From the IMG/VR virus record IMGVR_UViG_2671180603_000002: a stretch of DNA of 24,259 nt; one strand, written 5' to 3'. A program made the translations under genes and the position numbers. How positions within the stretch are numbered: the first letter of the stretch is position 1; each line of letters starts with the position of its first letter. This stretch comes from a virus (taxonomy: Duplodnaviria; Heunggongvirae; Uroviricota; Caudoviricetes). Positions 5,559 to 6,839 of the stretch are shown here, in pieces. Below the pieces are notes generated by a model that saw nothing but the letters and a program-made list of their open reading frames with translations, was not told where the DNA came from and made no database searches.

Positions 5559-5832
5559 TCTCCCGCATATTGCCAGCATGGCTTTTAATGAGCCGCTGAT
5601 GCTTGAACCCGCCTATGCGCGGGTTTTCTTTTGTGCGCTTGCAGGCCAGCTTGGGATCAGCTGCCTGACGGATGCAGTATCCGGCGACAGCCTGACTGCC
5701 GGAGAGGCACCCGCGGCGCTGGCGTTATCCGGTGATGATGACGGACCACGACAGGCCCGCAGTTATCAGGTAATGAACGGCATCGCCGTGCTGCCGGTGT
5801 CCGGCACGCTGGTCAGCCGTACTCGGGGATGA
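5539..5832 (+). CDS. C: Head maturation protease C, 5' fragment (96 native codons, then a frameshift and stop)
   Basis: GTG start at 5539 preceded by GAGGAGGAG; it overlaps the B 3' end by 20 nt as in lambda. [31 protein letters not shown]... matches lambda gpC up to ...VSGTLVSRTR, then leaves the frame and stops at 5830-5832. Confidence 0.7.
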
Positions 5833-6839
5833 CCGGTTACAACGGCATTATCGCCCGTCTGCAACAGGCTGCCAGCGACCCGATGGTGGACGGCATTCTG
5901 CTCGATATGGACACACCGGGCGGAATGGTGGCGGGAGCATTTGACTGCGCTGACATCATCGCCCGTGTGCGTGACATAAAGCCGGTATGGGCGCTGGCCA
6001 ATGACATGAACTGCAGCGCAGGTCAGCTGCTTGCCAGTGCCGCCTCCCGGCGTCTGGTCACGCAGACCGCCCGGACAGGCTCCATCGGCGTCATGATGGC
6101 TCACAGTAATTACGGCGCTGCACTGGAGAAACAGGGCGTGGAAATCACGCTGATTTACAGCGGCAGCCATAAGGTGGATGGCAACCCCTACAGCCATCTA
6201 CCGGATGATGTCCGGGAAACATTGCAGTCCCGGATGGATGCAACCCGCCGGATGTTTGCACAGAAGGTGTCGGCATATACCGGCCTGTCCGTGCAGGCTG
6301 TGCTGGATACCGAGGCTGCAGTGTACAGCGGTCAGGAGGCCATTGATGCCGGACTGGCTGATGAACTTGTTAACAGTACCGATGCGATCACCGTCATGCG
6401 TGATGCACTGGATGCACGTAAATCCCGTCTCTCAGGAGGGCGAATGACCAAAGAGACTCAATCAACAACTGTTTCAGCCACTGCTTCGCAGGCTGACGTT
6501 ACTGGCGTGGTGCAAGCGACGGAGGGCGAGAACGCCAGCGCGGCGCAGCCGGACGTGAACGCGCAGATCACCGCAGCGGTTGCGGCAGAAAACAGTCGCA
6601 TTATGGGGATCCTCAACTGTGAGGAGGCTCACGGACGCGAAGAACAGGCACGCGTGCTGGCCGAAACCCCCGGTATGACCGTGGAAACGGCCCGCCGTAT
6701 TCTGGCCGCAGCACCACAGAGTGCACAGACGCGCAGTGACACTGCGCTGGATCGTCTGATGCAGGGGGCACCGGCACCGCTGGCTGCAGGTAACCCGGCA
6801 TCTGATGCCGTTAACGATTTGCTGAACACACCAGTGTAA
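5829..6839 (+). CDS. C: Head maturation protease C, 3' portion (S49/ClpP-like peptidase domain plus the Nu3 scaffold region), in a different frame from the 5' fragment
   Basis: 336-aa ORF MTGYNGIIARLQQAASDPMVDGILLDMDTPGG... matching lambda gpC from about residue 104 to the C-terminus (...NDLLNTPV). Its ATG overlaps the upstream stop (ATGA). Confidence 0.8.
   Translation: MTGYNGIIARLQQAASDPMVDGILLDMDTPGGMVAGAFDCADIIARVRDIKPVWALANDMNCSAGQLLASAASRRLVTQTARTGSIGVMMAHSNYGAALEKQGVEITLIYSGSHKVDGNPYSHLPDDVRETLQSRMDATRRMFAQKVSAYTGLSVQAVLDTEAAVYSGQEAIDAGLADELVNSTDAITVMRDALDARKSRLSGGRMTKETQSTTVSATASQADVTGVVQATEGENASAAQPDVNAQITAAVAAENSRIMGILNCEEAHGREEQARVLAETPGMTVETARRILAAAPQSAQTRSDTALDRLMQGAPAPLAAGNPASDAVNDLLNTPV
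6234..6839 (+). CDS. nu3: Scaffolding protein Nu3, from an internal in-frame start within C
   Basis: An in-frame ATG at 6234 (MDATRRMFAQKV...) lies 606 nt before the C stop, which reproduces the lambda Nu3/C geometry (201 codons). Assigned by position. Confidence 0.55.
   Translation: MDATRRMFAQKVSAYTGLSVQAVLDTEAAVYSGQEAIDAGLADELVNSTDAITVMRDALDARKSRLSGGRMTKETQSTTVSATASQADVTGVVQATEGENASAAQPDVNAQITAAVAAENSRIMGILNCEEAHGREEQARVLAETPGMTVETARRILAAAPQSAQTRSDTALDRLMQGAPAPLAAGNPASDAVNDLLNTPV

Follow-up and report, generated by a model that had tools for sequence, protein, structure and literature searches.

Phage lambda provides the closest described counterpart of the locus analysed here. Its gene C is essential, with an EOP below 2e-7 on CRISPRi knock-down (PMC10695390); the product, gpC, is regarded as the viral protease (PMC10695390, citing Medina et al. 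2010), and C forms an initiator complex with B and Nu3 (PMC3224144). We analysed a lambda-like prophage in a window of 24,259 nucleotides, which an exact-protein look-up identifies as the entire Shigella sonnei contig CXDK01000078.1 (GCA_001252175.1). As in lambda, C lies between the portal gene B and the decoration gene D; the two genes differ by 40 substitutions over 1,301 aligned bases, and the S49 domain, the serine context NDMNCSAGQ and the internal Nu3 start are all the same. Whereas lambda C is a single ORF of 439 codons, the window has ORFs of 97 and 336 codons, with 19 bp gone after codon 96.

The intact Shigella C allele (P0031) is identical to the split gene at residues 1-96 and 104-439, with 4 SNPs in the surrounding 9.5 kb, and differs from it in having CAGCCGGACGCGGGCGCTG and in being the commoner of the two. 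A solved S49 relative is available in SppA of B. subtilis (PDB 3RST/4KWB), a membrane-anchored cellular enzyme that we used solely to place the break in the fold. The split also resembles the general decay of Shigella prophages through IS expansion and small deletions: it involves a small frameshifting deletion in a gene useless to the host, it is inherited clonally, and IS elements lie nearby in relatives. Measured against that process nothing about it is unusual, the sole curiosity being that stop and start overlap in ATGA where gpC has a native methionine. We interpret the split, at a probability of about 0.87, as a real, lineage-specific pseudogenising mutation, with loss of the protease deduced from the missing core strand of the fold and the essential role of C in lambda. 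The split gene is an ordinary prophage pseudogene, specific to its lineage.

Anatomy of the split gene

Pfam matches along the window give the gene order Nu1-A-W-B-C-D-E-FI-FII-Z-U-V-G-T-H-M-L, placing C, with its nested Nu3, between B and D. The 5' fragment of C (5539..5832, plus strand) opens with a GTG start and runs through 96 native codons and one new Gly codon to a TGA, encoding 97 aa. Its residues 1-96 agree exactly with the intact Shigella allele and match the N-terminus of lambda gpC, and its Shine-Dalgarno sequence, GAGGAGGAG, is strong (duplex energy -12.0 kcal/mol). The ORF has no Pfam match, and the first beta-strand of the S49 fold, GIAVLPVSGTLV (gpC 81-92), sits within it. A terminator-like hairpin followed by a T-run (GAACCCGCCTATGCGCGGGTTT TCTTTTGTGC) is also found on the coding strand at 5605-5636, inside this 5' part of C.

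Positions 5809-5832 read CTG GTC AGC CGT ACT CGG GGA TGA. The frameshift creates an ATGA overlap (5829..5832, plus strand), in which the ATG at 5829-5831, native Met104 of gpC, overlaps the TGA at 5830-5832. Because the frame shifts after codon 96, ribosomes initiating at the native start would stop at this TGA and yield a peptide of 97 residues; the rest of C stays open as 336 codons because Met104 overlaps the new stop. The resulting 3' fragment (5829..6839, plus strand; 336 aa, MTGYNG...) matches the intact Shigella allele exactly over residues 104-439 and corresponds to the same residues of gpC. It contains a complete Peptidase_S49 domain, a serine aligned with lambda gpC Ser166 and the C-terminal scaffold-like part that overlaps Nu3. 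At the protein level the loss between the two ORFs amounts to ALQPYSG only, and NCBI labels both products 'minor capsid protein C [Shigella sonnei]'.

The nested Nu3 scaffold gene (6234..6839, plus strand; position transferred from the lambda nu3 annotation at 5132-5737) begins at an in-frame internal start in C. Its ATG and the context of that codon are conserved, and its ORF of 201 aa is untouched by the deletion. A sequence-only reading of the same DNA had described C as split into two ORFs, and the sequence and ORF list bear out every coordinate that it gave; its statement that the S49 core and the Nu3 region survive in the 3' ORF likewise holds, given the Pfam match (PF01343) and the 201-aa Nu3 ORF at 6234.

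Origin and inheritance of the 19-bp deletion

Alignment of the window with lambda C (NC_001416 4418-5737), phage ev207 and E. coli and Shigella relatives shows exactly 19 bp to be absent. This comparison with lambda C and related prophages had been proposed by the sequence-only reading; it exposes the gap, and putting CAGCCGGACGCGGGCGCTG back restores a frame of 439 codons, the length of lambda gpC. The lambda gpC sequence on which that reading relied (...SRTRALQPYSGMTGYNG...) agrees with the alignment. The nearest intact relatives are three chromosomes of 4.8 Mb (L019, L021 and L022), which differ from the window by 4 SNPs and the 19-bp indel over 9,558 bp and read GGTCAGCCGGACGCGGGCGCTGCAGCCGTAC at the site, or, spelled out, GGT-CAGCCGGAC-GCGGGCGCTG-CAGCCGTAC.

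In these intact relatives the segment is flanked by an exact 6-bp direct repeat, CAGCCG (extended, CAGCCGgAC versus CAGCCGtAC, 8/9), of which the window keeps one copy at 5814..5819 on the plus strand; the junction may fall at any point between 5813|5814 and 5819|5820. A deletion of about 19 bp between short direct repeats had been predicted, and that much stands, although the repeat had been given as two copies of AGCCGTAC, which is close to the actual CAGCCG but inexact. The lesion combines a frameshifting loss relative to near-identical intact orthologs with a short repeat reduced to one copy, as in deletions mediated by microhomology. Since a random 19-bp deletion would show 6 bp of flanking homology by chance in roughly 1 of 4^6 = 4096 cases, the microhomology is meaningful and would make slippage or microhomology-mediated deletion the natural mechanism. 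We propose that the 19 bp were probably lost between the two CAGCCG copies by replication slippage or another deletion process of this kind. A hairpin in the deleted segment that would bring the repeats together was considered and gained no support, as neither DNA strand forms a more stable fold than its shuffled versions (z = +1.2 and +0.8).

An independent deletion was observed directly upstream of the same site in E. coli 99_0288 (L003, NZ_CP074769.1), where 12 bp are missing in frame at ~3090-3110, corresponding approximately to window positions 5804-5815. This deletion removes TLVS from the region of the first beta-strand; the annotation gives an intact S49 peptidase of 435 aa. Taken together, the 12-bp and 19-bp cases suggest that the short GC-rich stretch at the split site is prone to small deletions.

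The sequence-only reading had left open that the split was a sequencing error, and two properties of the data lean that way: the contig is poorly scaffolded elsewhere, with an N at 15811 and L-K-I-J segments stacked behind it, and a single sequencing project supplied most of the carriers. Against an artefact in a genome that truly has an intact C stands the recurrence of the identical junction in different isolates. At least eight other assemblies encode the very same 97-aa and 336-aa proteins next to each other, which brings the total to at least nine S. sonnei assemblies. The carriers include GCA_900487965.1, GCA_001259615.1, GCA_001253895.1, GCA_001252355.1, GCA_001261215.1 and GCA_001252135.1 in GenBank, together with two Logan assemblies (SRR19126783 and ERR5979253) made by an independent pipeline with another assembler. 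Literature searches by run and assembly accessions found no paper, and a phrase search on the gpC N-terminus returned only unrelated Ser166 papers.

Across 10-16 kb of the head region, 0-3 SNPs separate the carrier contigs from the window. At positions 3042, 7150, 7213 and 8136 the alleles are T, C, C and C in every one of the eight carrier loci checked and G, T, T and T in the intact L019 type, a haplotype of 4 SNPs that tracks the junction without exception. Losing 19 bp at a 6-bp microhomology is, moreover, untypical of Illumina or k-mer assembler error, and the one error-prone assembly encountered has 1-bp indels instead. Reproduced across independent isolates and assemblers and co-segregating with its haplotype, the junction marks a real, phylogenetically coherent, inherited mutation; the error explanation, contradicted by at least nine assemblies (two of them independent) and a shared SNP haplotype, is rejected as highly improbable.

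The error-prone assembly itself (L022/L037, GCA_040188985.1) has C intact and Nu1, A, Z and H split, with single-base indels breaking Nu1, A and Z. These breaks look like long-read homopolymer error, unlike the 19-bp deletion.

The recurrence of the two ORFs in several database entries also raises the question of whether the head protease has a conserved or programmed two-gene architecture in this phage group. The split products occur on 26 (97 aa) and 34 (336 aa) contigs and the intact allele (P0031, 439 aa, 'S49 family peptidase [Shigella sonnei]') on at least 1,000, these counts being lower bounds because pipelines that flag pseudogenes, such as PGAP, emit no protein. In terms of index blocks, the identical portal protein is found in 8,373 and split C in 41. 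Among 5,426 complete E. coli genomes, 4,484 homologous places were compared, and neither the deletion nor its junction was present at any of them; a 51-nt junction probe had no match covering 80% of its length in the same genomes. The phage records all retain the 19 bp. A degenerate junction pattern was absent from GTDB species representatives, where Shigella has no separate entry, so that this result carries little weight; in IMG/VR its sole match was the sister carrier GCA_001253895.1, identical to the window over the compared stretch.

Homologs sharing the two-ORF arrangement, which the sequence-only reading had named as evidence that would overturn a lesion, do exist, but solely in near-identical sister isolates: the lesion is real and the arrangement is not conserved. 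All recurring entries are S. sonnei within the 0-3 SNPs given above, and every diverged homolog examined has one gene of 439 codons. A native coupled ATGA gene pair conserved among diverged homologs was found neither in the E. coli genomes nor in the phage records or GTDB representatives, and we give a designed two-gene architecture next to no credence, less even than sequencing error. Split C is accordingly a clonal minority allele rather than a two-gene design that has been conserved. The 19-bp deletion offers a clean clade marker for the carrier isolates, and beyond such bookkeeping its significance is small.

The S49 fold and translation of the 3' fragment

We next consider what a split C could still supply. 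The 3' ORF matches Peptidase_S49 (PF01343) over residues 47-194 with E = 5.9e-44 and 150.2 bits, against a gathering cut-off of 24.9, and its membership of the family is clear. Residues 81-298 of gpC align with residues 4-226 of the B. subtilis SppA protease domain (3RST; E = 4e-22) along the whole domain, and the catalytic-serine context NDMNCSAGQLL, unchanged in the 3' ORF, aligns with GSMAASGGYYI of 3RST, in the nucleophile region of SppA. The alignment brings gpC 81-91 onto the first residues of the protease domain, which identifies GIAVLPVSGTLV as the first element of the fold, now carried on the 97-aa peptide. With the frame broken after codon 96, the locus encodes no single polypeptide of ~439 aa that would hold the whole fold including its first beta-strand, and it is a disrupted member of the S49 family, a pseudogene.

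Any product of the 3' ORF would lack the 103 N-terminal residues, including the first core beta-strand of the S49 fold, and without that strand the prophage would most probably have no working head-maturation protease. The setting for ribosome binding at the start of the 3' ORF is poor as well. A GGGG abuts the ATG with zero spacing (-4.5 kcal/mol), so that a Shine-Dalgarno sequence at the proper distance is lacking, and in the predicted mRNA fold the AUG is base-paired within a stable stem (-49 kcal/mol, z = -3.0). A new promoter serving the 3' ORF was also considered, and a scan of 5400-6400 found no promoter-like site on the plus strand. The poor Shine-Dalgarno sequence, the predicted stem and the lack of a promoter make de novo initiation unlikely and leave termination-reinitiation at the ATGA as the sole route to a 3' product.

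That route underlies the principal alternative, in which the split gene still supplies protease, either through reinitiation at the ATGA, giving a 336-aa product that would work alone or reassemble with the 97-aa peptide, or through a -1 slip. The ATGA overlap is a classical termination-reinitiation arrangement and retains Met104, and the 3' ORF encodes both the catalytic serine and the entire S49 Pfam domain. Between the first strand and the first helix, where the break falls, aligning SppA requires a gap, which suggests a loop of variable length. The lambda head genes B, E and Nu3 likewise start with weak Shine-Dalgarno sequences. These points are countered by the missing first strand, by an ATG with abutting GGGG whose AUG is paired in the predicted stem, and by the distribution of the allele, which is rare and clonal with no sign of selection and has no independent occurrence among thousands of homologs.

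For the -1 slip it is conceivable, judging from the sequence, that, while UGA occupies the A site, tRNA-Gly in the P site would re-pair from GGA to GGG, with reading continuing into AUG ACC...; this would produce gpC minus ALQPYS (...SRTR-G-MTGYNG...), a product whose sequence could be read directly from the DNA. The site, ACU CGG GGA UGA, does not contain the canonical slippery heptamer expected of a programmed -1 frameshift such as that of lambda G-T, U CGG GGA departing from the pattern X XXY YYZ; nothing beyond the slip of this single tRNA is conceivable there.

Weighing both routes, we regard a working split protease as improbable, though a less distant prospect than sequencing error, and the suggestion of the sequence-only reading that function is kept through the coupled restart is disfavoured. 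If a split protease or a 'shifty stop' slip on G GGA UGA did operate, the prophage would be capsid-competent though looking broken. Under the preferred reading of a pseudogenised C, a sub-lineage of S. sonnei carries a broken head protease gene and its prophage is probably unable to form infectious particles alone. The locus also illustrates that a pair of ORFs overlapping at ATGA can arise accidentally, by a frameshift at a native methionine, and that without evidence of conservation such a pair should not be taken for a designed, coupled one.

Prophage decay and other features of the contig

The late operon of intact-C relatives shows signs of decay of its own. An IS1 lies between the prophage porin and holin genes, and an IS3-family element (HTH_Tnp_1 + rve) lies between the lysis cassette and a DUF1398 gene, just upstream of cos/Nu1; in one such relative (L035, GCA_965230885.1) IS insertions occupy 1278-1975 and 4858-6086. 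One carrier contig (L005, 1-131) begins inside the same IS3-family element. The late operon is interrupted independently of the lesion in C. As IS insertions are typical of Shigella prophage decay, a neutral loss of C is unsurprising, and the pattern fits a prophage that was already decaying when C was lost. As a counterpoint to decay, the Nu1-L module is not heavily degraded: from Nu1 to L all other structural genes are full length, at lambda lengths.

The tail end of the contig is irregular. Position 15811 is A in the window and N in the deposited record. Behind it, at 15812-24259, follow three further L-K-I-J tail-module segments in a head-to-tail stack. Their counterparts in E. coli Z226-1 are 16056-18282, 16910-18708 and 16287-20709, with 90-93% identity, and the L-K-I-J copies within the window share 86 to 100% identity with one another, whereas sister assemblies have a normal single L-K-I-J order. 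The stack looks like a scaffolding artefact joining tail modules of several lambdoid prophages, not a tandem array. Its last copy of the J-like host-specificity gene (21594-24020) has a 2-bp deletion at ~23990 relative to J of E. coli Z226-1 and a premature stop at 24018-24020, after 808 codons; given the scaffold problem, this copy may belong to a prophage other than the one with the broken C gene.

Variation in the tail genes was also seen in one of the carriers (L006/L012, GCA_001259615.1). Aligned to 12963-15810, this assembly, which is identical to the window across the head genes, has a 3-bp indel in the tape-measure gene H and ~360 differences from position 14000 on, in the M-L-K region. 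This divergence reflects either a recombination mosaic between resident lambdoid prophages or an assembly cross-over.

Genomic context was obtained with the portal protein and a 10-kb flank, the DUF1398 protein having proved too widespread as a query, with E. coli contexts only. The first 1,000 positions of the window, which carry DUF1398 and DUF3950 genes on the minus strand upstream of cos/Nu1, are low in GC (0.40, against 0.55-0.60 elsewhere) and are a moron-like insert common to many E. coli lambdoid prophages.
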